DNA from: Methanobacteriota archaeon
GTDB taxonomy: Archaea > Thermoplasmatota > Poseidoniia > Poseidoniales > Thalassarchaeaceae
NCBI GenBank assembly: GCA_002716085.1
Contig: PAYZ01000001.1
Location: forward strand, 1-32,000
DNA: 32,000 bases
Reading direction: 5' to 3'
Position 1 is the stretch's first letter; the number at the start of each line of letters is the position of its first letter. The translations under genes and the position numbers were made by a program. A model generated the notes under the pieces. That model ran no database searches, was not told the DNA's origin, and worked only from the letters and a program-made list of their open reading frames with translations. Below, one piece after another: positions 2-28,910 of the stretch.

Positions 2-868
2 GGCGAGTCTGACACAGTCAGAGATCAAGCAGTCGAGAAGGGAATCCAGAATGGAGTCATGACCGCATACGCCATCCACGAGCTAAACGCTGCTATAATC
101 AAGGCTGACGCTGGAAACTGGGGACCAGATGATGCTCAGCACGCCTGGGACGAGGGATGGGCATTCTACCACGGTCCCGATGATTCTGATCACGACTACG
201 ACGGTTGCGGACCATATGCCACTGCCAACAAGAGGGCCGGGAACTTCGGAACTGCCAATGCTGCTGGCACAGCAGCTACCAATGTCGCAACACTAGCGGC
301 AATGAACGCAGGACTCACCGCTATGCAGAACGAGGACAGGCAGGCACTAGTAGATGCACGAGACGAGATTCTCAAGCAAATTGTCATCGTATATTCACAG
401 GCCTCAGTAAGATATGCCTCTAAGATGACTGATGACCTAGCTGCTGGAGACAAGTCAGACTACGACAAGCATCAGGCAGAGGGCCACGCATTCTACAGGG
501 TTATAGAAGCATACGTTGCCGAGCACACTTCGATCTGCTACAACATGGCCTCCCACGTTGTCACAGCAGACAGCTCTCAGGCCTCTTGTGAGGGCTATTC
601 TTACTACGACGCAGCAACAGATAACAACAGCATGAACTACACTGGCTGTTACAACATAGTTTCCCATCAGACTACCGAAGACAACCAGTCTACTTGTGAG
701 GCGTATGGATGGATGGCTAATTACTACTCCAACAAGATCGTAGCAATGTTCGACTTGGCCAATGATGGAGATGCTAGCAAGGACTACGAAGCTGACATCA
801 GAATGTGGCTACAGCCGGCATGGGATCACTATGGAATCACGGCTGCTGATATAGGGACACTCCAATAA
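2..868 (+). CDS. 3' part of a probably secreted Cys-containing protein. Tentatively an imelysin/EfeM-, DUF4856- or Fea1/ISIP2a-like iron-binding protein. The 5' end lies outside the window.
   Basis: The frame of the 59..868 ORF stays open back to nt 2. MTAYAIHE... has no signal peptide, so the real start is probably upstream. An EG[WH]AFY motif occurs twice (AQHAWDEGWAFYHG and KHQAEGHAFYRVIE; the second contains HxxE). A CYN..SH..T.D...CE.Y module is duplicated. The family call rests on motif style and the iron-uptake neighbours, not on a search. Confidence 0.55.
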   Translation, partial: GESDTVRDQAVEKGIQNGVMTAYAIHELNAAIIKADAGNWGPDDAQHAWDEGWAFYHGPDDSDHDYDGCGPYATANKRAGNFGTANAAGTAATNVATLAAMNAGLTAMQNEDRQALVDARDEILKQIVIVYSQASVRYASKMTDDLAAGDKSDYDKHQAEGHAFYRVIEAYVAEHTSICYNMASHVVTADSSQASCEGYSYYDAATDNNSMNYTGCYNIVSHQTTEDNQSTCEAYGWMANYYSNKIVAMFDLANDGDASKDYEADIRMWLQPAWDHYGITAADIGTLQ

Positions 869-875
869 AATGGAT

Positions 876-958
876 ACGTTGGCGGGGGGGCATCACCCCA
901 ATAGCATCATTTTCGGTTTTTCCGTAAACCGACCCCCCGTCAACAACACCCATTTTTC
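876..958 (+). terminator. Nested hairpins followed by a T-run, downstream of the first CDS. Possible terminator or structured intergenic RNA.
   Basis: GTTGGCGGGGGG (878-889) can pair with CCCCCCGTCAAC (933-944): 12 bp including one G.U. An inner TCGGTTT (913-919) / AAACCGA (926-932) stem is an alternative, because it shares nt 932 region with the outer stem. CATTTTT follows at 951-957. The stop codon is at 866-868. Confidence 0.3.
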
Positions 959-991
959 GAGGATTAGCTGTACTAAATTATCGGTGTAACG

Positions 992-3370
992 ATGAGAATA
1001 GGAATAATTCTGGTAACTATTTTCCTGATCTCATTATTATCCCCAGTTAGTACATCTGAAGACTCAGAACAACATGCATTCACCTTGTCGGGCAACGTCT
1101 TCTCATCTGGGGGCCAACCAGCAAATTCAACTTCGATAAAGGTCGATTCGATGGAATCGACGTGGTCCTCCGAAGGATTTTACTCATTCGAAGGCATTTC
1201 CCCTGGAGAGCATACTGTTAGAGCATACTTCATGAACGATGGACATACTGTTGTGTACAGGAAGATAATTGTCGAATCCGATATGAATCTTGATTGGTAC
1301 GAGGGAAGGAACTGGATCACGTTCAAGGTCTTCGAAGATGACAACAATATTGCTGAATCATCACTAAACACTGTAGAACTAGTCGAGACTTCGGAGAATA
1401 TTTCCACTCATTCAGGAAGAGGGGAGTTCGGGCCTTACCAAATTGGAGAATACTATACACTAATGTCGTACTATGGGGGAGACGATCATTCAACTCAATT
1501 CATCCACTTCAGGATGGAGGCAGGGTCTTCTTCGGTACACGGTCCGAATGATTTCCATTTTTACCAGGGAAAGAATAGCAGGTACGGATTTTTAACCGAT
1601 TTAGATGGAAACCCCATCACTGGTGCATCTGTTAGTACTGAATCGGCTAGCTCGATTACTAACTCAGACGGCTTCTTTCTTCTCCAGAATATGGAAGTTG
1701 GTTCCACTCAGAACTTATCTGTTTCTAACTGGGGTTACCAAATCATCGATCCGATTAACATAGAGATTTCCGATGGAGAAGGGTGGCTTAATATCACCTC
1801 TACAGTTGAGATAGAAATGCCTGATTACGCCAATTTCACTACACAAATCATTACTTCTCCACTAGAACAGATTACTATTGATTGGAGTGGAGGAGAGTAT
1901 ATTGATTTCTACTCTCTATATCTAGGTGAAGAACTAGTTTACAGGGGCGAGAAGGAGAGTTTTAACTTCGTACCGGAACGGGCAGGAAACTATCAATTTA
2001 GAATCGAATCTTCCAATTCCAACGGCTCTAAGATCAATCCAAGTGATTTGCAGGTCATAGTTCTACCAAACCAGCCTAACTCAGATTTGTGGTCTCAGGG
2101 AATGAGTTGGAATTATTCTCTTCTCTCAACCCCAGAATTCTATCAAAACAAGACATACACGGCAATAGGATCGGAGCCAATAATAGACGCATTTGGTAAT
2201 AATCGCTCCTCGTACATTCTCAGAGTCTCGGACGAAGAATATGAGGAGGGGGAGAAGGCTTTCCGATGGGTAGACTCAGAGAGCCTAATGACAATTCACA
2301 CATTCTGGGTAGATGCACCTTCTTCATCTTCTTACTACATGGAAGGTTTCCTGGGTTGGAACTTCACCGATCCAAATGGTATTCCCGTGAATCCCCTCAA
2401 TTACGTAGCAGGGGGTGAACTAACTCTTCACTTCAACAGGACAAATATCATTGGAGTACCGGGCCATCCAAACGGTTACGCTGATACCATGAATTCTGTG
2501 ACAGTCACTCATGGAGTTGAACTTACTACTTCTGCGGGTACCTTCATCACGACTCATCTAGAAATAACTGATAACAATGATGGATTTGTCTCTTGGGAGA
2601 TGTGGTACAATGAGACAGTTAGGAACTGGGTCAAGATCATAGATAAGTTACCAGGATCTCACTCAGATGAGGTAATTTCCGAGTTGACATCATTCGAAGT
2701 CCCAACCTCTCCCCAATTCATTACTGAAGACAATAGTAACTTTTCTGACGATGATATAGAGATAGAATGGGCCCAATTCCCTGGTGCTCAAAGATACAAA
2801 CTAATAGAGAACGGAGAAGTTGTATACCTTGGAGAAGAATCCAAAATAAAACTCATCAACAGGAACGACGGAGAGTACAATTTCCAGATATTGGCAGAGA
2901 TGACATCAGGTCAGATTATTCAAGGTAAGAGTATTACCGTCGAGGTATTCTTTGTTCTAGAGCCGCCTGAATTTATTTCAAAGTCACACTCTACAATAAA
3001 TTCGGACCAATCAATTCTGATTTGGTCTCCAGTGGACAGGAGCCTAGATGAGTATTTTGCAGGGCAAGTGATCTATTCTGTCTGGGTAATGCCAGAAGAA
3101 GGGCCATCTTACGAAGCGTATAATGGTCCTGAGAACCAGACGCTTCTGGAGGGACTAGAAACAGGGATTAATCGAATTAGGGTAAAGGCAACTCTAGAAA
3201 ATGGAAAAACTTCAGAATTTTCAGACTCCATCTTCATTACTTTCGAAGAGCCAGAAGAGAACGAGGACGGCCTCCCTTTCCTACCAGCACTGACTACTCT
3301 GACTCTGCTTGTTTTCGCTTCCAGATTTTCAATTACGAGGAGGAATGAAAGTTGGCAAAATCACCCCTAA
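992..3370 (+). CDS. 792-aa anchored cell-surface glycoprotein. It has CarboxypepD_reg-like and FN3-like beta-sandwich modules around a central domain I cannot assign.
   Basis: N-terminal signal/TM (MRIGIILVTIFLISLLSPVSTSE). At least a dozen N-x-S/T sequons. Two carboxypeptidase-regulatory-like modules (FTLSGNVFS...GEHTVRAYF and YGFLTDLDGNPITGASV...). Three FN3-like modules (ITIDWSGGEY..., IEIEWAQFPGAQRYKL..., ILIWSPVD...). An acidic linker is followed by LPF, a hydrophobic stretch and RR at the C-terminus. Confidence 0.85.
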   Translation: MRIGIILVTIFLISLLSPVSTSEDSEQHAFTLSGNVFSSGGQPANSTSIKVDSMESTWSSEGFYSFEGISPGEHTVRAYFMNDGHTVVYRKIIVESDMNLDWYEGRNWITFKVFEDDNNIAESSLNTVELVETSENISTHSGRGEFGPYQIGEYYTLMSYYGGDDHSTQFIHFRMEAGSSSVHGPNDFHFYQGKNSRYGFLTDLDGNPITGASVSTESASSITNSDGFFLLQNMEVGSTQNLSVSNWGYQIIDPINIEISDGEGWLNITSTVEIEMPDYANFTTQIITSPLEQITIDWSGGEYIDFYSLYLGEELVYRGEKESFNFVPERAGNYQFRIESSNSNGSKINPSDLQVIVLPNQPNSDLWSQGMSWNYSLLSTPEFYQNKTYTAIGSEPIIDAFGNNRSSYILRVSDEEYEEGEKAFRWVDSESLMTIHTFWVDAPSSSSYYMEGFLGWNFTDPNGIPVNPLNYVAGGELTLHFNRTNIIGVPGHPNGYADTMNSVTVTHGVELTTSAGTFITTHLEITDNNDGFVSWEMWYNETVRNWVKIIDKLPGSHSDEVISELTSFEVPTSPQFITEDNSNFSDDDIEIEWAQFPGAQRYKLIENGEVVYLGEESKIKLINRNDGEYNFQILAEMTSGQIIQGKSITVEVFFVLEPPEFISKSHSTINSDQSILIWSPVDRSLDEYFAGQVIYSVWVMPEEGPSYEAYNGPENQTLLEGLETGINRIRVKATLENGKTSEFSDSIFITFEEPEENEDGLPFLPALTTLTLLVFASRFSITRRNESWQNHP

Positions 3371-4434
3371 TACCGATTTTCCTCTTTTCAGTAGTGTTTC
3401 TATCCGCTATTGGTGCATGGCAGTTTTCATCCACAATTTCTGATACAAATCAATCTGGATCAATTTCTGTGGTCGACTCCAATGGTAAAGAGCACTTCTT
3501 TGACGAGCCCCCCAATCGTGTGGTTCTGACAAATACTTACGCTGCAAGTGTGATGAGGATGCTGGGAATCAACAATTCAGTAATTGTCGGGGTCTCTGGT
3601 GACTTCTACGACGAGACTCTGTGGCCAGAACTGTCCAGAAGAGAAATTGTGCAGCAATCTGCTCATTCTGAGATTGATTTCGAGGCCCTTTTGGATTCTC
3701 GTCCAGATGTCTACATAGTTTTCGCTACAAATGGCATGGTTGACACCAATTCAATCAGAGAGAAATTAGAACCTGTAGGGATAAGGGTCCTAGCCTTGGA
3801 TTTCTACAAGTACGACACTCTGAGGATTGAGATTGGAGTCATGGCAGAGTTATTTGGAAAACAGAGTGAGGCCGAGGATTTGTTTTCCGAGTTCGACTCA
3901 ATCGAGAACATGGTAACCAGTCGAACTTCGCAGTTAACAGAATCTGAGAGGCCAATTGTAGTCATGGAGCACCATGCATCTCTCACTCGCGACCCTGTTG
4001 TGCTTACTGGGACATCACAGTGGACAGATATGATATACAAATCAGGAGCAATTAATCAGTTTGCAGATCTTCCAGGCCACACAACTCATGTTGATATGGA
4101 AGCGATCCTAGATGCAAACCCAGACGTATTGATGTTTGATGGAATTGTTTTCGATATTGGATTCAATTCCTTTGATGATGGGGGCAAGTGCGACACTCAT
4201 CTGGAATTTATTAGAGGAAGGCCCGGTTTTGAAGATATTAATGCTGTTAAGGACGACCGAATGGTGATCATGTCTGGCGAATTTGCAGGGCCAATGATGA
4301 TTCACGGTCTTCCTACTTTAGCTAAGATCATCCACCCGGAGATTTTCTCAGATATAGACGCAGATTCTATTCTCGACGAATATTTCTCAAAGTATCATGG
4401 AATTGAACGAAGGGGCAAGTTCGTTTGCACATAG
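3352..4434 (+). CDS. ABC importer substrate-binding protein, type-2 (FecB/BtuF/HemT class; iron-siderophore, haem or cobalamin).
   Basis: TTG start with GGAGG (3339-3343) 8 nt upstream. It overlaps the upstream stop by 19 nt. N-terminal TM anchor (PLIPIFLFSVVFLSAIGAW). The fold-style motifs of Peripla_BP_2 proteins are present (RVVLTNTYAASVMRMLGI..., PDVYIVF..., NPDVLMFDG). It sits directly upstream of a FecCD permease. Confidence 0.85.
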   Translation: MAKSPLIPIFLFSVVFLSAIGAWQFSSTISDTNQSGSISVVDSNGKEHFFDEPPNRVVLTNTYAASVMRMLGINNSVIVGVSGDFYDETLWPELSRREIVQQSAHSEIDFEALLDSRPDVYIVFATNGMVDTNSIREKLEPVGIRVLALDFYKYDTLRIEIGVMAELFGKQSEAEDLFSEFDSIENMVTSRTSQLTESERPIVVMEHHASLTRDPVVLTGTSQWTDMIYKSGAINQFADLPGHTTHVDMEAILDANPDVLMFDGIVFDIGFNSFDDGGKCDTHLEFIRGRPGFEDINAVKDDRMVIMSGEFAGPMMIHGLPTLAKIIHPEIFSDIDADSILDEYFSKYHGIERRGKFVCT

Positions 4435-4449
4435 GAGGTGTTATCTCTG

Positions 4450-5487
4450 ATGGATTCCCTGTCTAAGAAACATATTGCAAACTCGAAACTCCAGATTTCT
4501 AAGATAATCGTTCTAGTTGTTTCCACACTCCTTTTTTCTTTGCTAGCAATGGGATGGGGGTCATCTTCAAATCTTGATATGGCGACTACAATGAAGATTA
4601 TTCTAGGTTTGGAGGATCCAGATGAAGTACAGTCAGCCATAATATGGAAGCTTAGATTTCCTAGAATATTGATGGCAATAATTGCAGGCGCCGCTCTGGC
4701 AACTGCAGGTGCACTGATGCAGGGTTGTCTAGGAAATCCCCTAGTGTCACCTCTTACTTTGGGTGTTGCTTCTGGAGCAGCTCTAGGTGCTGCGTTTGCA
4801 ATAATTCTAGACTTTTCTGTATTCCCTCAGATTGCAATTGTCACAAACTCTTTCCTTTTCTCTCTACTAGTGGTCGGGGTAATTATTCAACTGGGTAAAA
4901 TGCGTTCCGTTTCTGCAGAGTCCTACATTTTGGTCGGAATCGCAATCACATTTATCGCTGGAGCCATCGTTTCTACAATGCAATATTTCGCTACAGATGC
5001 TCAACTTTCTCAATTGACGCATTGGTCCTTTGGAAGCCTGTCCAGACCAACTCTTTCGAATGTCGTATGGATTGGTTTAGGTGTCGCTTTTCTAATGCCT
5101 TTGGCAATGACCTCGTCTTGGGATCTTAACGCAATGTCATTGGGGGGTGACGATTTTGCAATCTCCACGGGGGTAGATCCAGAATCTACTAGGAAGAATA
5201 TTCTGATTCTTTCAGCCCTTATGACATCATTGGTGATTGCATTTACAGGGTTAATTGGTTTCGTCGGACTAGCTGCTCCACATATGAGTAGGCTAGTAAT
5301 CGGTAATGACTACAGAAAGCTAATTCCATGCTCTGCAGTAGCTGGATCTTTCCTGATGCTTTTCGCTGACACAGTAGGAAGGATTGCATTCGCCCCCATA
5401 GTTATTCCAGTAGGAATTATGCTATCCATTGTCGGCGGCCCTCTATTCATGTATCTATTATTGAACAATAGGGGGGAGATAATGTGA
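4450..5487 (+). CDS. FecCD/BtuC-family ABC importer permease.
   Basis: Polytopic membrane protein with typical FecCD motifs (RFPRILMAIIAGAALATAGALMQ, NPLVSPLTLGVASGAALGA, GLIGFVGLAAPHMSRL, GGPLFMYLL). The ATG at 4450 lies 11 nt after AGGAGG (4433-4438). The GTG at 4438 from the ORF track is the alternative start. Confidence 0.9.
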   Translation: MDSLSKKHIANSKLQISKIIVLVVSTLLFSLLAMGWGSSSNLDMATTMKIILGLEDPDEVQSAIIWKLRFPRILMAIIAGAALATAGALMQGCLGNPLVSPLTLGVASGAALGAAFAIILDFSVFPQIAIVTNSFLFSLLVVGVIIQLGKMRSVSAESYILVGIAITFIAGAIVSTMQYFATDAQLSQLTHWSFGSLSRPTLSNVVWIGLGVAFLMPLAMTSSWDLNAMSLGGDDFAISTGVDPESTRKNILILSALMTSLVIAFTGLIGFVGLAAPHMSRLVIGNDYRKLIPCSAVAGSFLMLFADTVGRIAFAPIVIPVGIMLSIVGGPLFMYLLLNNRGEIM

Positions 5488-6293
5488 GCAGCCTTCTAGA
5501 AGTCAGCAAATTGAATTACAGTTGGGGCCAGAAAAAGGTTCTCAATGACATTACATTCGATATACAATCCAACCATATAGTAGCAATCCTAGGGAAGAAT
5601 GGAGTGGGTAAAACTACTCTGATAAAGTGCATTAATAGAGTCCTCAATCCCGATTCAGGAACTATCAAGATTTCAACACAGAATACTTCCGATCTATCCT
5701 TTTTGGATATTTCAAAATCTGTCTCATATGTCCCACAATCAGTTAAAACTAGCTTTTCGATGGACGTTTTTGAGGTAGTTCTACTAGGTAGGAAGCCGCA
5801 TATCTCATGGAGAGTTTCTAAAGAGGACAGGGAGGCGGTAAGCAGAACTCTGCGTCTACTCGGACTGGAGGATCTAGCTTTCCGAAAGTTCGACAGGCTT
5901 TCTGGAGGGGAGAGACAGAGGGTAGTTGTAGCAAAGGCAGTAGTCCAAGATCCGTCTATTTTCCTATTCGACGAACCTACTAGCGATTTGGATTTGAGGA
6001 ATCAGATCGAGGTAATGAAGAGCATCAAGCAAATTGTTTCTGATTCAGAATCAGAAAAATCTGCTATTATCGCAATCCATGATATCAATATTGCAGCAAG
6101 ATTCGCTGACAGGATTCTTCTATTGCACAATGGAAAGATAAAGGCGGACGGAACTCCCACGGAGGTCCTGACGAGGGAGAATATAGCTCAAGTCTTCGAA
6201 GTAACTTGTGAAATCATCCTCCCAACAGAAAAATCTCCAATGCGGGTTCTAGTTGATGATGAAATATGGTACAAGGAAAAGAAAAGGGATTGA
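5484..6293 (+). CDS. ABC importer ATPase (FecE/FepC/BtuD class).
   Basis: Walker A GKNGVGKTT, signature LSGGERQRV, Walker B IFLFDEPTSDLD, H-loop IHDIN. The GTG start overlaps the permease stop (GTGA at 5484-5487). Confidence 0.92.
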   Translation: MSSLLEVSKLNYSWGQKKVLNDITFDIQSNHIVAILGKNGVGKTTLIKCINRVLNPDSGTIKISTQNTSDLSFLDISKSVSYVPQSVKTSFSMDVFEVVLLGRKPHISWRVSKEDREAVSRTLRLLGLEDLAFRKFDRLSGGERQRVVVAKAVVQDPSIFLFDEPTSDLDLRNQIEVMKSIKQIVSDSESEKSAIIAIHDINIAARFADRILLLHNGKIKADGTPTEVLTRENIAQVFEVTCEIILPTEKSPMRVLVDDEIWYKEKKRD

Positions 6294-6294
6294 A

Positions 6295-6747
6295 ATGACT
6301 GAACGGAAATTGACGATTATTTATGGAACAGAAACAGGAAACTCAGAAGAATTAGCTGAAGATACAGCAATATCAGCAAAAAAATACGACCTCACCCCTG
6401 TCGTAGTTGATATGGAAGATATGACTGCAGATTCAATTTCAGAGGTTGAGAGATTAATTGTTATTTGCAGTACATGGGGTGAAGGCGAACAACCAGTCAA
6501 TGCACAGGATCTTTACGACGATGTTTGCCAACTCGAAGATTCAAAGTTAGAAAATACAAAATTTTCAGTTCTTGCACTCGGAGATTCAGCTTTCGAGTTT
6601 TTCTGTGAATCTGGCAAAGAGTGGGACGCAATTCTTGAGAAAAAGGGAGGTATTAGAATTAATGATAGAATCGATTGCGATACAGATTATGATGACTATG
6701 TCGAGGAGTGGATCAACACAACTCTAAGTTTTATGAAGGATGTTTGA
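6295..6747 (+). CDS. Flavodoxin (FMN-binding, CysJ/P450-reductase-like flavodoxin domain).
   Basis: LTIIYGTETGNSEELAED is the phosphate-binding loop. LVICSTWGEGEQP and VLALGDSAFEFFCESGK are also present. The ATG at 6295 lies 1 nt after the ATPase stop. The 6253 start in the ORF track would overlap the ATPase by 41 nt. Confidence 0.85.
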   Translation: MTERKLTIIYGTETGNSEELAEDTAISAKKYDLTPVVVDMEDMTADSISEVERLIVICSTWGEGEQPVNAQDLYDDVCQLEDSKLENTKFSVLALGDSAFEFFCESGKEWDAILEKKGGIRINDRIDCDTDYDDYVEEWINTTLSFMKDV

Positions 6748-6764
6748 TAGGGGGAAAGAGAGAA

Positions 6765-7613
6765 ATGTCAGAGAAAGAAGACTCCAGAAAAGTGATATCG
6801 CGACACTCTCCTCCAAGTGGAAGAAATACTCAGAACCAAGAATTACTTTACGACGCAAATATCCCAACCCCCTCCCATCCTGAACTGGCCAGAACCATGG
6901 CAAGAAAAATTGGAACAGGAACACTTTGCACGTTGTCTTCTAATCCAGAAGGATATCCATACGGATCTTTTGTTACCTATTCGATCCATAATGGAGATCC
7001 AATTTTCTTAATTAGTGCTCTCGCAGAGCATACAAAGAACCTCAACCTATCTACTAGGTCATCATTACTAATTTCAGAGGGAGGCGAAGGAAATCCACTG
7101 GCATTGGGAAGAGTTACGCTAATCGGAGATTGTTTAATAATGCCTGAAGAGGAAAGGCAATCGGCCAAGGAAAACTTTCTAGAAAAGCATGAAAGCGCCT
7201 CATTCTATGTTGATTTCAAAGACTTTCACTTCTACAAACTAAGAGTCGACTCCGTGAGATACATAGGTGGATTTGGCCGAATGTCTTGGATTGATGGTGA
7301 CGATTGGTCCAAAGCCCAACCAGATCCTCTAGAACCATTCTCAAAGGACATTATTGACCATATGAATGATGACCACATTGATGCAATGATCGACTGTTGT
7401 ATTAATTTGAGTAAAGCAGTAGACACTTCAAACGTAGAGATGACAGGAATCGATCGATACGGATTTGAGATGTCGGCAATTACAGAAGAGGGGCCAAGAC
7501 CAATCAGGATCGCATTCAATAAACAGGCCACAACCCCTGAAGAGGCTAGAATCCAAATCATCTCAAGAGTAAAAGAAGCCAGACAGATTTCCAAAGACAA
7601 AGACAAACCGTGA
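6765..7613 (+). CDS. HugZ/COG0748-type putative haem-utilisation protein (PNPOx-like split beta-barrel plus DUF2470).
   Basis: ARTMARKIGTGTLCTLS...GYPYGSFVTYS...LISALAEHTKNL...GRVTLIGD...FYVDFKDFHFYKLRVDSVRYIGGFGRMSWI is the split barrel. IIDHMNDDHIDAM...MTGIDRYGFEM...IRIAF is the DUF2470-like part. The ATG at 6765 follows GGGGAAAGAGAG and lies 17 nt after the flavodoxin stop. Confidence 0.7.
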   Translation: MSEKEDSRKVISRHSPPSGRNTQNQELLYDANIPTPSHPELARTMARKIGTGTLCTLSSNPEGYPYGSFVTYSIHNGDPIFLISALAEHTKNLNLSTRSSLLISEGGEGNPLALGRVTLIGDCLIMPEEERQSAKENFLEKHESASFYVDFKDFHFYKLRVDSVRYIGGFGRMSWIDGDDWSKAQPDPLEPFSKDIIDHMNDDHIDAMIDCCINLSKAVDTSNVEMTGIDRYGFEMSAITEEGPRPIRIAFNKQATTPEEARIQIISRVKEARQISKDKDKP

Positions 7614-7625
7614 CTTTCAACCCAA

Positions 7626-8630
7626 TTAGTAAGTTCCCACCATATTTCTCACAGCTCTCTCTACATCGATTTGACCATCAAGCAGACTACCCAGAGTTTC
7701 TAAGAAGGGGGTGCTCAAACCCATTCTTTTTGACATGTTAAGGAACATCCTAGTGGCCCTAACTCCCTCAGCAACCATGTGCATCTCTGCTAAAGATTCC
7801 TCCAGGTTCTTGCCCGATCCCAGTTTCTCTCCTAGGGTCCGATTCCTGCTCCTAGGGCTAGATGCAGTAACGTACAAGTCGCCTATTCCTGCAGGCCCGA
7901 AAGCAGTCCTATCATCAGCCCCCATCTCCTTGAGGAGCATTATCCCCTCGCTGTACCCGGAGAGGACCAGAGCCGCCTTCAGGTTGTCTCCACCTATGCT
8001 GTCCCTGAGGCCGTCAACTAGGCCACATGCTAGGGCCACGCAGTTCTTGTATGCCCCCCATAGCTCTGCTCCAACGGGGTCGTCTGCAGGAGTTAGGATA
8101 AGCGACCCTGTGGATAGGCGCTCGGAGACCCTTTCTGCTACGCTCCTATCGTGGCATGCGACCAGGGCATTGGTTATCACTCCTCGAGCAACCTCAGGAG
8201 CTATTGTGGGCCCAGTCATCACAACCACTGGATTGGATAGCCCCGATTCTGCGAGCCTCCTCTCTATCGCATGGGAGATCATTTCTGAACCGCCTTCTTC
8301 AACGGGGGCAAGCCCCTTTGCCAAGTCAATGAGTAGGTGAGAGGGCCTAAGTGAGGGCACAAGTCTATCAACCACTTCTAGGATTACAGAGCTCGGAAGT
8401 GCGAGAACCAGAATCTCGCATGAGTCGGTAACATCGGAGATTTCCATTGTGCATTGAAGATCCGGGATCTTGAATCCAGGGAGGTACTTTTCGTTCTCAG
8501 ATCTATCCATCACAGACTCGTACACTTCTTCTTCGATAGTCCATCCAATGACATTATGGCCGTCATTGCACCAAGCCAGTGCCAATGCCGTCCCCCAGTT
8601 ACCAAGACCTAGAATTCCAATTCTCGCCAT
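7626..8630 (-). CDS. gpsA: NAD(P)H-dependent sn-glycerol-3-phosphate dehydrogenase.
   Basis: MARIGILGLGNWGTALA (Rossmann motif), NEKYLPG, LAKGL, GPTIAPEVA, DPVGAELWGAYKNCVALACGLVDGL, GDNLKAALVLSGYSE, GIGDLYVTASSPRSRNRTLGEKLG and VAEGV are collinear with bacterial GpsA. GGAGAT lies about 8 nt upstream of the ATG. Confidence 0.9.
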   Translation of the reverse strand: MARIGILGLGNWGTALALAWCNDGHNVIGWTIEEEVYESVMDRSENEKYLPGFKIPDLQCTMEISDVTDSCEILVLALPSSVILEVVDRLVPSLRPSHLLIDLAKGLAPVEEGGSEMISHAIERRLAESGLSNPVVVMTGPTIAPEVARGVITNALVACHDRSVAERVSERLSTGSLILTPADDPVGAELWGAYKNCVALACGLVDGLRDSIGGDNLKAALVLSGYSEGIMLLKEMGADDRTAFGPAGIGDLYVTASSPRSRNRTLGEKLGSGKNLEESLAEMHMVAEGVRATRMFLNMSKRMGLSTPFLETLGSLLDGQIDVERAVRNMVGTY

Positions 8631-8730: not shown

Positions 8731-8815
8731 GCAGGGGTACCCGAGCGGTCAAAGGGGCTGGGTTTAGGTCCCAGTGCGTAGTGCTTCGCAGGTTCGAATC
8801 CTGCCCCCTGCACCA
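8731..8815 (+). tRNA. tRNA-Leu (anticodon UAG), class II, with CCA encoded.
   Basis: Hand-folded cloverleaf. Acceptor GCAGGGG/CCCCTGC. Anticodon stem CTGGG/CCCAG with loop TTTAGGT. 13-nt variable arm. T arm GCAGG-TTCGAAT-CCTGC. Discriminator A followed by CCA. Confidence 0.93.
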
Positions 8816-8866: not shown

Positions 8867-8951
8867 GCAGGGGTACCCGAGCGGTCAAAGGGGCAGCGTT
8901 CAGATCGCTGTGCGTAGTGCTTCGCAGGTTCGAATCCTGCCCCCTGCACCA
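8867..8951 (+). tRNA. tRNA-Leu (anticodon CAG), class II, with CCA encoded.
   Basis: Same sequence as the 8731..8815 tRNA except for the 17-nt anticodon arm (stem CAGCG/CGCTG, loop TTCAGAT). Confidence 0.93.
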
Positions 8952-11900
8952 TCACTGTATTCGGATTCTCTTGGACCTAATACTAGCCAGGTCCCTCTTC
9001 TTTAGTCCTGCAATCCTGTAGGCCATCAGTCCCAGGAATATGGTGGATGCAGCAATCATCATCCACGCCTCTCCGCCTAGCGGTCTAGTGGGGTCCTTGG
9101 ACCAGTCCTTCCATCCAGTTGCAGGGTCCAGCCTCCCGTCCTCCGAGTCTGGTATCCCGTCGTTGTCATCGTCTGTGTCGAACAGATCTTTGATCCCGTC
9201 TCCGTCGAAATCGGCACTGGAGGATTCGTTCGTGTCTTCTAGGACGGTTTCCACCTCATCCAATGCTATCTCGTCACCCGGGAGAACCACTATGGGGCAA
9301 CCGAGGTCATTCCCAGGAAGCATCAGTATGGCCATCATTTCAGGATTCTGAGAACTGACTCCGGCCAAGTAGGGGCACTCGTCAGCGTTGTCCCCAACCG
9401 TGTCTCCATCGGTGTCCTGCCACTCGGTAGAGTCGTTGGGGAACAAGTCCCTGTTGTCTCCAATGTTGTCGCCATCAAGATCCGACCATTCAGACGCATC
9501 CAGCCGGAATGCGTCCACTGTGTCGTTGTAGCCGTCGTTGTCATCGTCAGTGTCGTTTTCGTTCCCGATGCTGTCACCGTCGGTGTCATACCATTCCGAT
9601 GGATCCAAGGGGAAAGCATCGCCCAAAGGTAGAATTGCGCATTCAGCAATTCCGTCTTCGTCTATGTCGGGTCCCTGCGAAATCACGCTCGGTGGCACGT
9701 TAACCAAAGTCATTCCCTCGTAGTCCGACCTTGGTCCATCGCACTTCCCGTCGTTGTCATCGTCAGGGTCCCTGTTGTCCCCTATGGCGTCCCCGTCGAA
9801 GTCCGACCACTCTTGGTTATCCTCGGGGAAGACATCGAACATGTCGTCCCTGCCGTCTCCGTCGTCATCTTGATCTTCGTTATCGCCTATTCCGTCCAAG
9901 TCTACGTCTTTCCATTCGGTTTGGTCATAGGGAAATAGGTCTTCAGTGTCATTGACGCCGTCGTTGTCATCGTCAGAGTCCAAGCTATCGGGTATCTTGT
10001 CCCCGTCAGAGTCGACCGAGACGTTGGGGTCTAGTGGGTCGAAGTCTCTATCATCGGGGACCCCGTCGTTGTCGTCGTCTGAATCTGTGGTGTCGGGGAT
10101 GTGGTCGCCATCGAAGTCAGCCAAGCACATGTCCGGTGAAGTGGATCCCTCCGAAATAGTAGAGTGAAGCGCCGGGCACTGGGTCTGTGCCACGGCTTCG
10201 TTCACATCGACATAGAACCCAAAGGAAGAGATCGTGCACTGGGACTGGCCCTTAAGACTGGAGAAATAGCCCTTCGTGCAACCAGTCTGATTCAGCTGTC
10301 CCGAATCGGGTACGCTGAAGCCTCTGTCAGCCTTAAGGCAGGTAGTTTGCTGAGATTGGGGTTGGTATGAGCCTGGTGAGCAGGGAACCTGCTCCTTCGA
10401 ACCGTGCCCCAGGTCTATGGCTACTGGACTAGTTCTGTCAATCGAGGTTCCATCACCAAGCTGCCCCAAGGAGTTGAGGCCCCAGCACTCCAAGCTGGCA
10501 TCATCGAGGATTGCACAAGTATGCCTCTGCCCAACAGAGATTGACAGAGCACTAGTCGGCAGGCTAACTAGGTTTGGAAGAATCTGGCTAACAAGGGTCC
10601 CGTCCCCAAGCTGGCCCACCGAGTTATCTCCCCAACATGCCACTTCGCCAGATTCATAGAGGGCACAACTATGGAACAGCCCGGTCTGTACATCTGCACC
10701 AGTTTGCGATGCGTCTATTGCCACATTCGTCGGGAGGGGGGACTTCACGGTATCGCCCACTCCAAGCTGGCCGAAGCCATTGAAACCCCAGCAGTAAAGA
10801 GACCCATCATTGAGGCCTGAACAAGTATGGAAAGGCCCTGCATCTAAGGATACCACATCGCTATCTCCGGGAATTGCCACATCCCTTGGCCTAAGCCTGT
10901 CGACCGTCGAACCATCTCCCAACTGACCGTGCCAGTTGTCCCCCCAACACTTTGCCGACCTGTCCTCAAGTATAGCGCAAGTGTGGTAGGAACCCGCAGA
11001 GATTTGGTTTACAAGAATCCCCCCCGTGAAAACCTCTACCGGAGAATTCCTGTTTGCCCTAGTCCCATCTCCTAGCTGCCCGTTGCTGTTCTCGCCCCAG
11101 CACATAGCTGTTCCATTTTCGAGAACGGCGCATGAGTGTGCCTCTCCAGAAGAAATTCCCACGGCAACCGCCCCGTGACCAAGGTCTACGGAGACGGGCG
11201 TAGTCTTCTCAATAGTTGTCCCGTCGCCCAACTGTCCGAATTCGTTGGAGCCCCAACAGCGCACAGAGCTATCATCCATTAGCGCACAAGTGTGGTATGA
11301 ACCAGTTGAGATCTCGATTGCTCTTCTACCCAGTGGCATTGATGCTTTCTGAGGATCAGAACTCCCCGTTCTCGTACCATCTCCTAGCTGCCCGTTGCTG
11401 TTCTCTCCCCAGCAGCTCACCGATCCATCGTCCAGGATGGAGCAAGTGTGCAAAGCTCCAGCAGAGACTCTGGTCAGAACTGGAACGCTGTGCCCCGCCA
11501 CTGCCCAGTTGCACGAATCGGCAGAGGTCTGCCCTGTGAGGTTGTTGAACTGTCCCGCAGGGCAGGGAGTCCCCTTTGATGCACCGCTTCCGGATACGAA
11601 GTAACCTGCCCTTGCCGGATCACATGATGTCTGGGCCGGGAGCTCCTGGAATGTACCCGGGCCACATTGGGTCTGCAGGGAAGCTCCATCGGAGTTTGTG
11701 AAGTTCCCAGGGCTAGCTGGAATCATTACCGTGTATCCCGAACTGGGGACATAGTATCCAGGAGCAGCATCGCGACAAGAGAACCTTCCATAGTTCCCTG
11801 GCGTGCAGTCCGCGGCAACGGTCGGATTCGAGTCATCGCTGTCTGCCCCACTAGCGAAACCGTCTCCGTCAGAATCTCCAACGTTCCTGACCTCGAAGAT

Positions 11901-14900
11901 GTTCATTTCTCCATCAGAAGGGTCGTTGAGGTCTCTCTCGGAGGATGCCATGTATGTCCACCTCGGCAATGAGAATGTTGACGGAGAGGTCCCTTGGGAG
12001 AGTTGTCCCTGGCCATCTCCACCCCAGCATTGAGGTAGATCATTGCTAGCCACTACACAGGTGTGGTGATGGCCCGAGGTAACCGAAATAGCCCCTAATC
12101 CACCGATAAGGCCAATTTCAGTTGCGCTCGAAACTTGCGCAGAGGTGCTGCCATCTCCAATCTGTCCCTCGGAGTTTCCGCCCCAGCAGTGCAGAGATCT
12201 ACTTGTGTCTATGGCGCAGGTATGCCACTCGCCCGAATCAAAAGAAGTGACTCCAGTCAGAGTACTAGTGACCGTGGATGCGTCGTTTTGCTGATTTGTT
12301 CCTCCTTGACCCAGCTGTCCGTGCGAGTTTCCGCCCCAGCACTTCAGGGTCTTGGAGCTGTCCAGCAAAGCGCATGTGTGGGAACCCCCCGAAGATACGG
12401 CTACTACGTCTCCTCCGATTGCAGGGAGCGGTACTGCAGTGTTGCTGGGAGTAGTTGAGCCATCGCCCAGCTGACCATTGTCATTGGATCCCCAGCATGC
12501 CAATGACCAATCGTCTAGGACTGCACAGGTATGGTTTGCACCAGCAGAAACTGCTAGGGCCTTTTTTCCAGATAGGCCTACTGAGACTGGCGTACTGCTG
12601 TCCGAATTGGTTCCGTCACCCAACTGGCCGTGATCGTTATTTCCCCAGCACTCCAAGCTCGCGTCATTCAGTATCGCACATGTGTGCCAACCACCTGCAG
12701 AAATCTGAACAGGCACCCCAGAAAGACTGGTTAGAACTGGGCTGCTGCTGTCAGTGTTGGACCCATCGCCCAGCTGACCTTGATCGTTATCGCCCCAGCA
12801 CCTTACTTCTCCGTTGTCAAGAGTGGAGCAGGTGTGTTCCTTTCCTGAACTGATCGATACAGCAGTTCGCCCCTGATCAAGACTGACAGGAGTCATGGTC
12901 AACCTATCGACTGTGGTCCCATCTCCAAGCTGGCCAGCAGAGTTGTCACCCCAGCATTGGAGCGTGGTATCGTCGAAAATCGCACACAGATGCCCTTCGC
13001 CCGCCGACATCGTAGTCTCAGTGAATATCGATCCCGATTGGAAACCTGGCTCGTTGAGGCCATCTGATACCGGGTGCCTCATGTCGGAAATTATCCCCGT
13101 GCTAGAGGCGACGTAGTACTTCTGCGACGGCCCTTGTGCCACATTTGTTCCAGAGACTATGACCTCCCAGTCCCCTGCATCGGGGAAGTCCCTAACGGTC
13201 ACCCCAACTACGTTGTTCAGGTCATCGTTTGAGTAGGGATACACGTTCCCATAGGGGTCCTTCAGTGTAATGTCCAAGTCATTGATGAGCTGCTTCCCTG
13301 CCGATGGAGCATTTACAGGGTCGTTCCAGACCAGTGCTACTCTGAAAGACTCGAGTCCAGTGTCTGGGATTGTGAGCATGAAAGAGTGGCTCTCCCCCGT
13401 GGTGATCTCGGTCCCTTCAGAGAATCCCGCACCTACTGCATTCTGTATGTCAACCCTGCCCCATCCCTCATGCAAATTGGGGGACAACTCCTTCGCACCA
13501 TTGGCCCCGTCCCCTCCAGTAGAGTACTGTCCCAGCATCTCATGGGCTCCTGCGATTAGAATGGCTTTGACTAGAGCCGACTCTGGACAGGAATCGCTTG
13601 TAGGGTTGTTGGCAAGGTCGCAATTGTAACCCGAACCCGGGACGTTGTTCAGGTGTTCAATCAGTAGGGCTGCAGTACCAGCAGTTAACGGAGTCGCCAT
13701 AGATGTGCCACTCTTGAATGTGTAGTAGTCGCCCCAGTCATCCGATGCACGAACTTCCGCTAGACTCGATCGAGTCGAGAGGACATATGTGCCTGGAGCA
13801 ACCAGGTCTGGCTTGATCCTGTTGTCGTTTGTGGGCCCCCTATTGGAGAAGCCTGCCATCCCCTCTGGGTTGTTTGCAACCTTGTCCTCGGCTATTGGCG
13901 GTGTTCCGAACTTGTCCACTGAGGGGAGGGTTCTAAATGGCATAGTCTGCCACTGCTGGGAAACCTCTGGCCTGTTGTTCTCCGAGGCTCCAATGGACAG
14001 GATGTTCTTCGCAGTAGCCTGTTTGTTCATTGCACCGGTGTTTATCTCGCCGTTCTTGCCCCCAGTGCAGGAAGTTTGTCCAATGGCATCGTAATTGCAG
14101 TCAAACGCGTCGTTGCCCATGGCATATAGGATTGTCAGATCAGTTAGGGTGTTTGCCTGGGTGTCAATTGACTGGGCCGTAGTGTCATAGTAGTTCCAGC
14201 AGGCAGAGCCTGCGCACCCCGAAACGCTCCTGTCCGGGCCAGAGCCCCACGAGTTGGTATGCACTCTCGCACCCTTGTCATAAGCCTCCTGGAAGAAAAC
14301 GGTGTATCCCGGATTATACAATCCACCTTCGTCTTCTTCCAATGGGCCAGATGTGGTATCTACTCCTTGGAAGACCATTAGGGCACCAGGAGCTGTACCA
14401 GCAATGTCATCGTCCTGCCCATTCCCATCCGCATCTACTCCTGCCGAGTTCACGCCGCTCCCTAAAGCTGAACCTGCAACGTGAGTTCCGTGACCGTTGT
14501 AATCCTCGGGACCGTCAGTGCAGGTCGAACAGGTGTAAGTAATGACTGAATGTAGGCGACCATAGAAGTCAGGATGGATGTCAGAGTTCTGAATGTTGCA
14601 GTGAGCAATGCTGTTGCAGTTCACTGCCTCATCCAGGCCAGAATCCATTACCGCGACAATCACTCCATTACCTGAAAGAGTGTCGGAACCCATGTTTCCT
14701 GGTTCTGCAACCCAGTCAGTTCCAATCACTTCACCAGCCCTGCCATTGTCTAACTCATCTGGGTAGCTAGGCTCAATCCACTCCACGAAAGGCTGTGCAA
14801 TTAGAGTCCCGACCAACTTATCATCGACAATTACTTTCGCCAGCCTGCCTATGCTGAAGTCGATAACCTCGATCCCCGAGTCTTCCAGGTCAGGCAGAAG

Positions 14901-21791: not shown

Positions 21792-21867
21792 AATCCACAT
21801 ATTGGGGCCAAATAGTCAAGAATCACGGAAACAAGACCTTTCAAATGAGTGGTGTGGACGACCTGAT

Positions 21868-22662
21868 ATGGCGGATCTCCTTTCTGCTAGGCTAGAAGCT
21901 ATCCTTCCGGGGGGAAAGGGGGTCTGGGTCCCAATGGACCACAGCTCTTCTGCATTTCCAGAGAAAGGATTGGAGGACTCCAACCTTTCTGTAGATGCTG
22001 CTATAGAAGGTGGAGCAGATGCAATTATCCTCCACAAGGGGGCAGTAAGTTACCATTCATCGAGAACTGGGTGGAATAGGTTCGTATGCCATACTTCTGT
22101 TTCCACTTCTCATGGGGGCGCCCGATCTCAGGATAAGGTGGTGGTTGCAACGGTACCCGAGTGTTTGGACAGGGGAGCTATTGGCGTTTCAGCTCAAGTG
22201 AATCTCGGTGATCCGGCTGAGCCAGAAATGATTCAGAGAATGGGGTCGATAACAACCGCTGCTCACAAACTAGACACTCCGGTTCTAGGGATGTTCTACC
22301 CCCGGGGCCCGAATTTATCATTAGATCCGTCAGACACTACTGGAGGGGTCGCCCATGCCGCTAGACTAGCTTGGGAGATCGGCTGCAATGTGGTAAAGGT
22401 TCCATGGACAGGTTCCGAGGACTCATTCAGAATCGTTACTTCTTCGGTTCCAATCCCTGTTCTTCTCTCAGGAGGGCCCAGAAAGACCTCATTCATTGAG
22501 ACTCTAGAAATTGTTGAGAAATCGATTAATGCAGGGGGATCTGGTGTTTGCATAGGAAGGCTTGTTTTCGCATCAGATGACCCCTCTTCTCACATCAGGG
22601 CCCTAAGAGCAATGATCCACGATGGGGCAAATCCAGAAGAAGCCTCTCGGCACCTGGGGTGA
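21868..22662 (+). CDS. aroA': 2-amino-3,7-dideoxy-D-threo-hept-6-ulosonate (ADH) synthase, a class-I aldolase (DhnA/FbaB) family member.
   Basis: Class-I aldolase pattern (VPMDH..., GADAIILHKG, NVVKVPWTG with the Schiff-base Lys, LLSGGP, GSGVCIGR). The assignment as ADHS rather than FBP aldolase rests on its position directly upstream of DHQ synthase II. The ATG at 21868 is preferred to the TTG at 21802. Confidence 0.7.
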   Translation: MADLLSARLEAILPGGKGVWVPMDHSSSAFPEKGLEDSNLSVDAAIEGGADAIILHKGAVSYHSSRTGWNRFVCHTSVSTSHGGARSQDKVVVATVPECLDRGAIGVSAQVNLGDPAEPEMIQRMGSITTAAHKLDTPVLGMFYPRGPNLSLDPSDTTGGVAHAARLAWEIGCNVVKVPWTGSEDSFRIVTSSVPIPVLLSGGPRKTSFIETLEIVEKSINAGGSGVCIGRLVFASDDPSSHIRALRAMIHDGANPEEASRHLG

Positions 22663-22666
22663 AAGA

Positions 22667-23602
22667 ATGCAGATTTGGACAGATTCTCTACCTCAGGGAA
22701 GTCCCGAATACGATGTAGTTAGCAGGGTTTGGACAGGAAAATCTACTGATGTTTCAGAAGTAGAAATTGACGATAAATCGGGCCAATCGGAAGCCATCTC
22801 ATTAATCGGGATGGTTCCTTGGATCCTGGTAAGATGCTCAAATTGGACTATGGTCCCGCTAGAGAATATCGTGGCAGCAGCCAGGGGATCGGGGACAAAG
22901 ATTGCAGCATATATCGACAAGGAGGTCGAGCTGGGAGGTGCCGCTTTCGCTCTTGGAGAAGGGGTGGATGCCGTTCTAGTTCCAAGAAACCTCTTGATTG
23001 AAGCCTCAAGAATTTTCAAAGAGAGGATATGCACTCCAGTGAGAGTCAAGGAGAAAGGAATCTCCGTAGATGAAGCCGAAGTTTTGGCTGTCGAGTCAGT
23101 CGGAATGGGGGAAAGGGCCTGCATCGACCTTACGAGGCAGTTGGAAGACGGTCAAGGCATGGCAATAGGATCAATATCGGGTATGCTGTGTATGATTCAC
23201 GGGGAGACAATTCAATCGGAATTTGTACCCACCAGGCCATTCCGGGTTAACGCTGGTGCCATTCATTCATATGCGCTAATTCCTGATGGAAAGACAAAGT
23301 ATCTGAGTGAGCTGAATTCCGGAGACGAAGTTGCAATTGTTTCCGAAAATGGAGCCGCTGAGAAAGCCACGATTGGAAGGATAAAGATTGAGAATAGGCC
23401 CCTATTAATGGTCAGGTTTTCCATGCAAGGATCCCTTGGTCAGGTCGTACTTCAGCAAGCTGAGACCGTTCGAATAATCTCCCCCGGGGGCAAAATTGAA
23501 TCAGTCACCAATATAGAACCAGGAATGAGAATCTCACTAATTTTAGGAAACAGAGGGAGGCACCTAGGAATTCCTATCGGAGCGGAGGTGACCGAGAAGT
23601 GA
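22667..23602 (+). CDS. aroB': 3-dehydroquinate synthase type II (archaeal).
   Basis: The family call comes from general similarity recognised by eye (…VPLENIVAAARGSGTKI..., GVDAVLV, PFRVNAGAIHSY, GRIKIENRPLLMV) and from operon context. The ATG at 22667 lies 4 nt after the upstream stop and is preceded by GGGGTGA. The product is about 311 aa, which is short for the family. Confidence 0.7.
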   Translation: MQIWTDSLPQGSPEYDVVSRVWTGKSTDVSEVEIDDKSGQSEAISLIGMVPWILVRCSNWTMVPLENIVAAARGSGTKIAAYIDKEVELGGAAFALGEGVDAVLVPRNLLIEASRIFKERICTPVRVKEKGISVDEAEVLAVESVGMGERACIDLTRQLEDGQGMAIGSISGMLCMIHGETIQSEFVPTRPFRVNAGAIHSYALIPDGKTKYLSELNSGDEVAIVSENGAAEKATIGRIKIENRPLLMVRFSMQGSLGQVVLQQAETVRIISPGGKIESVTNIEPGMRISLILGNRGRHLGIPIGAEVTEK

Positions 23603-27810: not shown

Positions 27811-27828
27811 CCTCCCACCTCTGCATCT

Positions 27829-28893: not shown

Positions 28894-28910
28894 AATTACA
28901 TCTCCATTTT

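Follow-up and report, generated by a model that had tools for sequence, protein, structure and literature searches.

A putative iron-regulated cluster for haem capture, import and degradation in a Marine Group II archaeon

Gram-positive bacteria take up haem through the Isd/Shr relay, which consists of a surface receptor, the IsdE lipoprotein, the IsdF permease and a cytoplasmic haem degrader. Bacterial haem operons can also encode flavodoxin-family proteins, such as HmuF of Fusobacterium (PMC10404700). In prokaryotes, genes of the HOZ-like type are often found beside those for FecCD, transferrin-like and other iron proteins, and these neighbourhoods have been proposed to be haem-utilisation clusters (PMC11602992). 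Few planktonic archaea are as abundant as those of Marine Group II (MGII), the Poseidoniales. None of them has been cultured, and how they obtain iron has hardly been described; an MGII genomics paper mentions only 'fragmented iron ABC transporter' genes (ABC, ATP-binding cassette; PMC6741140). Here, we describe a gene cluster at positions 2..7613 of a 32,000-nucleotide (nt) stretch of MGII DNA (positions 1 to 32,000 of contig PAYZ01000001.1, assembly GCA_002716085.1; hereafter the window), encoding a lipoprotein (Fea1), an anchored surface protein (Surf792), an ABC importer, a flavodoxin and a HOZ-family protein. Judging from sequence and gene context, it is probably an iron-starvation-induced cluster through which an MGII archaeon captures, imports and degrades haem.

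A haem/iron capture, import and degradation locus had been suggested for these genes in the original prediction, which was made from the letters of the window. Three lines of evidence now support that reading: promoter boxes of the TroR type, an orthologous module that is coupled to the haem proteins ChuW and HutX, and conserved haem-site histidines in the HOZ protein.

The capture and import module and its ligand

The cluster consists of seven co-directional genes on the + strand, a count on which the list of open reading frames (ORFs) agrees with genes called independently on marine metagenome contigs of 100% identity. Eight had been counted at first, although the content listed with that count also came to seven; the five junctions quoted with it are right (3352/3370, an overlap of 19 nt; 4434 to 4450; GTGA at 5484-5487; 6293 to 6295; 6747 to 6765). 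The cluster starts with the 3′ 289 codons of the Fea1 gene (2..868), of which the first 124 codons are cut by the window, followed after a gap of 123 nt (869-991) by the gene for Surf792, an all-beta protein of 792 amino acids (aa) (992..3370). Next come a membrane-anchored class III substrate-binding protein of 360 aa with a TTG start (3352..4434), a FecCD permease of 345 aa (4450..5487; alternative GTG start at 4438), an ATPase of 269 aa whose GTGA start overlaps the permease stop (5484..6293), the flavodoxin of 150 aa (6295..6747) and the HOZ protein, which is cytoplasmic and 282 aa long (6765..7613). Profile searches against Pfam and NCBIfam bear out the domain calls made earlier for these proteins. 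The genes for the binding protein, permease and ATPase are adjacent or overlapping and match Peripla_BP_2 (1e-25), FecCD (2e-80) and ABC_tran (9e-32), respectively, which makes them a type II (FecCD/BtuCD-class) ABC importer.

To see how far this arrangement extends, 26 species-representative Poseidoniales loci were mapped by tblastn, covering both MGII families. In about 24 loci, wherever the contig is long enough, the core genes follow one order: surface protein, binding protein, FecCD, ATPase, (flavodoxin), HOZ. Since this order recurs in so many species loci at protein identities to the window of only about 43% to 85%, the core arrangement is not due to chance. The HOZ gene adjoins the importer in every mapped locus except L031 (~3 kb away). 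Around the core, gene positions are looser. Fea1 is usually encoded upstream, and downstream of HOZ in L019 and L024; the flavodoxin gene lies within the cluster in 14 Poseidoniales loci and is shifted upstream in some (L012, L014); a ferrochelatase gene lies at most a few kb away in five loci (L001, L009-L012); and a trio of genes for a PhnE-type permease, an ATPase and a binding protein that matches the Transferrin domain recurs next door. By its mapped gene content and order, the region is an iron island in which a single core is tightly conserved.

The strongest available argument that this core handles haem comes from a cultured archaeon, Methanomassiliicoccus luminyensis. Its operon (L091/L092; WP_020424289.1, WP_081579923.1, WP_019177805.1) consists of genes for DtxR (divergent), a surface protein, a binding protein, FecCD, ChuW/HutW, an ATPase and HutX, and a metagenome contig (L090) carries genes for a surface protein, a binding protein, FecCD and ChuW. 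ChuW/HutW scores 490 bits in M. luminyensis and 458 bits in L090 against TIGR04107 (cut-off 400), and HutX scores 154 bits against TIGR04108 (cut-off 110). The binding proteins of these ChuW/HutX operons are 38-41% identical to that of the window, compared with 22-23% for same-locus paralogues, and the ChuW-linked permeases are 47-48% identical, compared with 37% for paralogues. TroR-like boxes, which we discuss below, precede the surface-protein gene in these operons too. No fetched locus has both ChuW/HutX and HOZ: tblastn found neither ChuW/HutW (TIGR04107) nor HutX (TIGR04108) in the window or any Poseidoniales locus, and both are present in L090-L092. An orthologous capture and import module thus appears to be joined to two unrelated haem degraders, HOZ in Poseidoniales and ChuW/HutW with HutX in M. 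luminyensis, which argues for haem as the substrate. The degrader in the surface-ocean Poseidoniales is of the O2-dependent type, and that of the anaerobic methanogen, which belongs to the same phylum, is of the anaerobic radical S-adenosylmethionine (SAM) type.

The ligand is not readable from the importer sequence alone, since every NCBIfam equivalog (BtuC, FhuB, FecD, haem and corrinoid ATPases, IsdE) scores below its cut-off. For the binding protein, a profile search of the PDB returns the YiuA-like 9ht5 and 6b2x first (89 and 80 bits), then IsdE (33 bits) and BtuF (5ysc; 14 bits, E 0.14), and among the 20 chains listed at E <= 1 no depositor-named haem binder other than IsdE is found; at the equivalog level, the IsdE model TIGR03659 gives 28 bits against a cut-off of 299. 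The YiuA-like proteins are 'iron/siderophore' binders that have no assigned ligand, and literature searches for the ligand of 9ht5, 9hrj, 9hrp and 9if3 gave unrelated papers only. The original prediction had placed the binding protein in the FecB/BtuF/HemT class. Its class III Peripla_BP_2 membership stands, while a close sequence relationship to canonical haem binders does not, the nearest solved structures being YiuA-like. The residues E206-H207-H208, Y154, W224, M315, R56 and R290 are invariant in the groups represented by the window and by the ChuW/HutX operons, and among these E206-H207-H208, Y154, W224 and M315 are candidate ligand contacts.

Permease and ATPase bring a second ligand into play. 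The best NCBIfam matches of the permease are BtuC models (199 and 185 bits), and the ATPase is matched best by the haem ABC ATP-binding protein PRK13548 (225 bits, cut-off 261), with a corrinoid ATPase model second (221 bits). These matches would suit a corrinoid (BtuFCD-like) importer whose link to iron and haem is coincidental, but all three cobalamin scores lie far under their cut-offs (334, 461 and 537 bits), and BtuF gives no more than E 0.14 with the profile of the binding protein. Moreover, iron boxes of the TroR type are found at the operon in many genomes, and its neighbours encode HOZ or ChuW/HutX, Fea1 and DtxR. We therefore consider a corrinoid importer very improbable. The affinity to BtuF/BtuC that the original prediction had raised as an objection to itself was checked by these similarity scores and is not borne out by them.

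The HOZ protein, its flavodoxin and the surface protein

The protein encoded at 6765..7613 belongs by sequence to the HOZ family and has the conserved haem-site histidines. Its CREG_beta-barrel domain (7e-24; residues 56-201 of a 301-aa ORF) is followed by a DUF2470 domain (1e-16; residues 212-285), and PNPOx_N is matched as well. In the PDB, it matches MSMEG_6519 (5bnc, 2e-44; 35% identity over 245 aa), AtHOZ1 (6m09, 3e-29) and PtHOZ1 (2e-26), and HugZ (3gas) only at 3e-4. The model of HugZ proper, TIGR04109, has a cut-off of 240 bits and is matched with only 65; its positions 2-77 align with residues 215-293, which means that the domain order is reversed. Of the earlier assignment to a HugZ/COG0748-type protein with split barrel and DUF2470, both domains are confirmed, and the family is HOZ instead of HugZ proper; databases already label the gene 'HugZ family' or 'heme iron utilization protein'. 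Residues H89 (LAEHTKNL) and H199/H204 (HMNDDH) are invariant in 14 relatives. H89 aligns with AtHOZ1 His135 (HugZ His136; haem-propionate, dimer interface), and H199/H204 align with PtHOZ1B His201/His206 (the DRI pair, the 'extra haem' site of ChuZ). MSMEG_6519 and AtHOZ1 have been called haem-degrading (Grosjean et al. 2024, J Biol Chem, PMC11602992), and we propose that the HOZ protein of the window is an O2-dependent haem-degrading enzyme.

The flavodoxin encoded directly upstream (Flavodoxin_1, 2e-28) is of the CysJ/CPR flavin mononucleotide (FMN)-domain type. It comes closest to the FMN domain of diflavin reductases like CysJ, its best NCBIfam match being the cysJ FMN region TIGR01931 (135 bits). 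In eukaryotes, a CysJ/CPR-type FMN domain feeds electrons to haem oxygenase. We propose that the flavodoxin is the electron donor to HOZ; alternatively, it could substitute for ferredoxin at low iron.

HOZ could also have a role other than degradation, in which haem is imported and HOZ acts as a chaperone or sensor, passing intact haem to haemoproteins (haem piracy) or tuning haem synthesis. According to one study, the HOZ family includes non-enzymatic members (PMC11602992), some HOZ/DRI proteins, such as GBP and also Rv3839 (PMC13258150), sense haem or regulate its synthesis without being enzymes, DRI has been described as a haem-binding regulatory domain (PMC11014987), and the ferrochelatase gene is nearby. 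However, the closest characterised relatives, MSMEG_6519 and AtHOZ1, are those described as degraders, and an adjacent electron-donor flavodoxin suits a redox enzyme. In addition, the stand-in for HOZ in anaerobes is the degrading enzyme ChuW, and the operon is under an iron box instead of an obvious haem signal. We thus find a chaperone or sensor quite improbable and retain degradation as the proposed function.

Outside the archaea, the nearest HOZ relatives are found in Vicinamibacterales (Acidobacteriota) and Myxococcota, at 52-59% identity (bacterial loci L033-L088 vs L009-L034). These bacterial proteins are about as close to those of MGII as MGIIa is to MGIIb, which suggests transfer of HOZ between domains of life. 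In Vicinamibacterales, the HOZ neighbours are uninformative (PIN domains, an Na/H exchanger), and FecCD, ATPase and HOZ genes occur together in only two bacterial loci, both from Myxococcota (L027, L081).

On the outer side of the membrane, Surf792 is the proposed capture component for the ligand, presumably haem. It has an N-terminal signal-like helix and 15 N-X-S/T sequons, and its full-length AlphaFold2 (AF2) model is all-beta, with a predicted local distance difference test score (pLDDT) of 78 and a C-terminal transmembrane helix at residues 764-788. The protein is built as a chain of Ig/Fn3/CarboxypepD_reg-like beta-sandwich domains with a highly conserved central domain (residues 355-585; 2054..2746). 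Pfam recognises CarboxypepD_reg and Y_Y_Y only, and sequence and profile searches of PDB and Pfam gave nothing past Fn3/CarboxypepD_reg and no NEAT domain. A Foldseek search with the full-length model returned generic Ig/Fn3 chains only (GhpA, titin-like, complement), with no functional lead. A PGF-CTERM anchor was considered and dropped, as Surf792 has no NCBIfam match. The family comprises 284 matches, all unnamed and MGII-like.

The central domain, a candidate ligand pocket, matches no Pfam family and no PDB sequence. Its AF2 model (pLDDT 81.5, predicted template modelling score 0.79) gives weak Foldseek matches to YmcC, RseB, LolA, ependymin and VioE (best E 0.015, template modelling scores 0.35-0.47), and faint DUF3108 matches on distant members point in the same direction. 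The domain is possibly a beta-rich, LolA/RseB-like open half-barrel of the kind that holds hydrophobic ligands. An exhaustive hidden Markov model search with it found 37 clusters among 1.84 billion (1.84e9) representative proteins. W367, G370, M371, W373, W426, W456, F518, W535 and Y539 are invariant across distant members and, apart from G370, are candidate ligand contacts. Six distant relatives were looked up, and in all five with readable downstream DNA a Peripla_BP_2 gene lies directly downstream; the contig of the sixth (L094) stops 207 nt past the gene. Wherever downstream DNA is readable, the surface-protein gene is thus immediately upstream of the same binding-protein subfamily. The earlier reading, in which an anchored surface protein takes the place of an outer-membrane receptor, is supported.

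Several of these observations weigh against haem. The binding protein is nearest to the YiuA-like proteins and far from ShuT/PhuT/HmuT, with IsdE at only 28-33 bits, and the best NCBIfam match of the permease is BtuC, although under its cut-off. The fold of the central domain is weakly assigned, with no Foldseek match at E <= 0.001. HOZ relatives can be sensors, and with MGII's own ferrochelatase close by HOZ could act on endogenous haem. Flavodoxin is the classic low-iron replacement of ferredoxin. As regards co-transcription with Fea1, a hairpin with T-runs (see below) sits in the 123-nt gap upstream of Surf792. The importer could instead take up a non-haem iron chelate, either a xenosiderophore, perhaps an amphiphilic one, or some other Fe(III) complex. 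Flavodoxin and HOZ would then be present only through co-regulation, the former replacing ferredoxin to spare iron and the latter recycling or sensing endogenous haem. The YiuA-like relatives of the binding protein, the sensor-type HOZ relatives and the nearby ferrochelatase gene speak for this reading. The LolA-like pocket could hold a lipidic siderophore equally well, the flavodoxin gene shifts its position in the island, and a second, unrelated flavodoxin is encoded near a DtxR gene in L024. What makes a chelate importer unlikely to us is that the orthologous module in Methanomassiliicoccales is coupled to ChuW/HutW and HutX, for which no siderophore role is known, and that HOZ adjoins the importer in essentially all Poseidoniales loci across ~55% protein divergence. 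Furthermore, neither the gene calls nor the scanned neighbouring ORFs show a siderophore-interacting reductase (SIP/FhuF), although neighbours were not exhaustively annotated.

Iron boxes, Fea1 and neighbouring genes

In L001, a contig identical to the window that extends further upstream, a 16-bp palindrome (TTTAGGT-TT/TG-ACCTAAA) is present twice ahead of Fea1, outside the window, at 45 and 2 nt from the ATG. The core pattern TTAGG-N4-CCTAA has 43 occurrences across 438 kb of MGII-type loci and none in 915 kb of bacterial loci, and these occurrences are found upstream of Fea1. Where Fea1 is encoded elsewhere, the boxes are upstream of the surface-protein gene (L011, L015, L018, L019, L024), and they also occur upstream of the gene for the transferrin-like binding protein (L017, L018, L025, L028, L031, L032). 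The MGII box, TTTAGG-N4-CCTAAA, matches the TroR/DtxR motif of Haloferax volcanii, TTTAGGC-NNN-CCTAAAANAN, which was derived from chromatin immunoprecipitation sequencing and reporter assays (bioRxiv 10.1101/2023.08.16.553580), and by its promoter box the cluster would belong to a TroR/DtxR-type regulon. DtxR-family genes stand divergently beside the operon in L019, L024 and L091. With boxes at the promoters and these regulators next to them, iron-dependent repression of the cluster is likely and well founded. The gap between Fea1 and Surf792 in the window (869-991) has no DtxR box (pattern search with <= 1 mismatch; the single match in the whole window is chance level). The boxes offer a first handle on the iron regulon of Poseidoniales and could be used for mining metagenomes and metatranscriptomes.

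Fea1 is encoded at the start of the cluster and probably binds extracellular Fe(III). The intact gene (L001:2863-4104) codes for 413 aa with a lipobox (LSGC; N-terminus MNGKLQSIMMTMLMMASALSGC) and belongs to the FEA1-related lipoproteins: NCBIfam NF038033 (FEA1_rel_lipo) gives 226 bits on the window fragment and 370 bits on the full-length gene, against a cut-off of 250, and a Pfam Fea1 annotation is on record for the latter. The original prediction had called it a putative iron-binding secreted protein of the haem/iron locus. The family match agrees with iron binding, while Fea1 is probably not a step of the haem route, since its position around the cluster varies and it is often found near the transferrin-like/PhnE-type ABC system. 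It is more probably co-regulated with the haem module and serves a separate route.

Directly 3′ of the Fea1 stop codon lies a conserved GC-rich hairpin with T-runs (878..944, +; GGCGGGGGGG...CCCCCCGTC), which has a minimum free energy of -39.7 kcal/mol (z = -2.8) and matches no Rfam family. It is kept after Fea1 in L009, L012 and L026 regardless of the gene that follows, and in L026 it shows a compensatory G-C to A-T change. The hairpin may be a 3′ element of Fea1, acting as a partial terminator, a processing site or a 3′ stabiliser, and might set Fea1 apart from the genes downstream.

Just upstream of the window, and divergent from Fea1, is the ferrochelatase gene hemH (L001:1646-2662, -; 230 bits). 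The intergenic region shared by hemH and Fea1 holds both TroR-like boxes, and haem synthesis may be under the same iron switch as Fea1. A DUF454 gene stands beside the ferrochelatase gene, and DUF454 also adjoins the distant Surf-like gene in L095. A PhnC/PhnE-type ABC transporter, that of the recurring trio, adjoins the haem cluster in many Poseidoniales genomes (L017:10532-13840, L013, L018, L025, L028, L031, L032, L001:1-935). Its binding protein matches both Transferrin and Phosphonate-bd in Pfam, and TroR-like boxes lie directly upstream of the gene for that protein. The substrate of this transporter is probably ferric iron and not phosphonate, and Fea1 may work together with it.

Beside the M. 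luminyensis operon, the upstream region (L091:1-8674) encodes a Flavin_Reduct protein, two flavodoxin-like proteins (Flavodoxin_4; Flavodoxin_2/FMN_red) and a 1100-aa LRR/Fn3/Big surface protein. Downstream, there are genes for two more ferrichrome-like binding proteins with iron boxes, together with a second FecCD system.

In the window, the gene unit is closed by a convergent gpsA of bacterial type (7626..8630, -; GpsA 273 bits), which encodes an NAD(P)H-dependent glycerol-3-phosphate dehydrogenase and is linked to the cluster in several, not all, related loci. We take GpsA, an unusual lipid-backbone enzyme for an archaeon, to be a known peculiarity of MGII. Two tRNA-Leu genes on the + strand (8731-8815, anticodon TAG; 8867-8951, CAG) separate gpsA from the gene for a giant protease (8952-15503, -), a secreted or anchored protein of 2183 aa with a subtilase domain, >20 RCC1 repeats, ephrin-receptor-like modules and acidic Asp-rich repeats. 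The G+C content is 0.54-0.56 in this region vs 0.40-0.45 in the haem cluster. Further along are an archaeal-type shikimate cluster (21802-25589, +), with genes for a DeoC-family aldolase, 3-dehydroquinate synthase II, a GHMP-type kinase and chorismate synthase, and a pair encoding a MoxR AAA ATPase and a DUF58 protein (26491-28914, -). The archaeal hallmarks noted in the first inspection of the window are found in this shikimate cluster, and the source names of homologues are Thalassarchaeaceae/Poseidoniales.

The proposed haem route and known systems

Taken together, these genes probably provide the following route. In iron-replete cells, a repressor of the DtxR/TroR family would sit on the TTTAGG-N4-CCTAAA promoter boxes, and repression would be lost at low iron. 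Outside the cell, the FEA1-related lipoprotein would bind Fe(III), probably for its separate route. Surf792, anchored at its C terminus, would hold a Trp/Met/Tyr-rich half-barrel off the membrane on its Ig-like domains, capturing free haem or haem from detritus. The haem would be handed to the membrane-anchored class III binding protein with its invariant EHH motif, Tyr154 and Met315, and imported by permease and ATPase, which belong to an importer family for which haem is the presumed substrate here. In the cytoplasm, dimeric HOZ would bind the haem and cleave it with O2 and electrons from the flavodoxin, thereby freeing Fe2+. The anaerobic Methanomassiliicoccus would keep the steps from regulation to import, with ChuW/HutW and HutX replacing the HOZ step.

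A bolder version of this proposal, which we regard as a possibility rather than a probability, is that the Surf792 family is a new type of haem receptor or haemophore on the cell surface, specific to Thermoplasmatota. Its basis, an orphan half-barrel of the LolA-like kind, would be unrelated to NEAT, HasA, HmuY and TonB-dependent receptors. With the importer, the family would form a module plugged into either HOZ and flavodoxin or ChuW and HutX, by which MGII would draw a major part of their iron from the haem of phytoplankton detritus. If true, the few known haem-capture folds would be joined by a new type of receptor. If haem is imported, MGII would be part of the marine haem-iron cycle, and hemin would be a rational supplement for their cultivation. 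Since an orthologous module exists in the cultured M. luminyensis, the hypothesis is directly testable.

The closest parallel in the literature is formed by the prokaryotic HOZ-like neighbourhoods, where, like here, a split-barrel+DRI gene stands beside FecCD-family and other iron-transport genes (PMC11602992). It was found there by bioinformatics, and the study does not deal with archaea (0 occurrences in the main text), a surface-protein family, a flavodoxin partner, TroR boxes or the ChuW parallel. The Isd/Shr relay follows the same logic of a cell without an outer membrane, leading from an anchored capture protein over a tethered class III binder and a FecCD-type importer to a cytoplasmic degrader. 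The MGII locus differs from it in lacking NEAT domains, in using a C-terminal transmembrane anchor instead of sortase wall attachment and HOZ instead of IsdG/I, and in its IsdE match of just 28-33 bits. The HugZ/ChuZ/HutZ loci of Helicobacter, Campylobacter and Vibrio share a split-barrel degrader of the same superfamily, adjacent haem ABC import genes and iron control, but have DRI before the barrel and a TonB-dependent outer-membrane receptor, which is absent here.

Two further systems resemble parts of the cluster. The hmu operon of Fusobacterium nucleatum also encodes a flavodoxin-superfamily protein inside a haem uptake and degradation operon (PMC10404700). HmuF, however, has a haem-binding helical cap and acts with HmuW as a hydride-transfer anaerobilin reductase, whereas the MGII protein is a plain, short CysJ/CPR-type flavodoxin next to an O2-dependent-type enzyme. 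The ChuW/HutW-HutX operon of M. luminyensis is known only from automatic annotation, and a literature search gave no paper on it. It shares with the MGII cluster the orthologous surface protein, binding protein, FecCD and ATPase, the TroR-like boxes and a divergent DtxR gene, and it differs in that a radical SAM methyltransferase and the HutX carrier replace HOZ and flavodoxin and in that its surface protein is shorter (438 aa).

As the original prediction had supposed for planktonic marine archaea, literature searches found no archaeal haem uptake system described. The locus as such is of an already known kind, a haem ABC import and degradation locus with HOZ beside FecCD. As far as literature searches reach, what is new compared with the systems above is the archaeal MGII setting, the orphan surface-protein family that is firmly tied to the importer, the exchange of HOZ for ChuW on an orthologous module, and the boxes of the TroR type.

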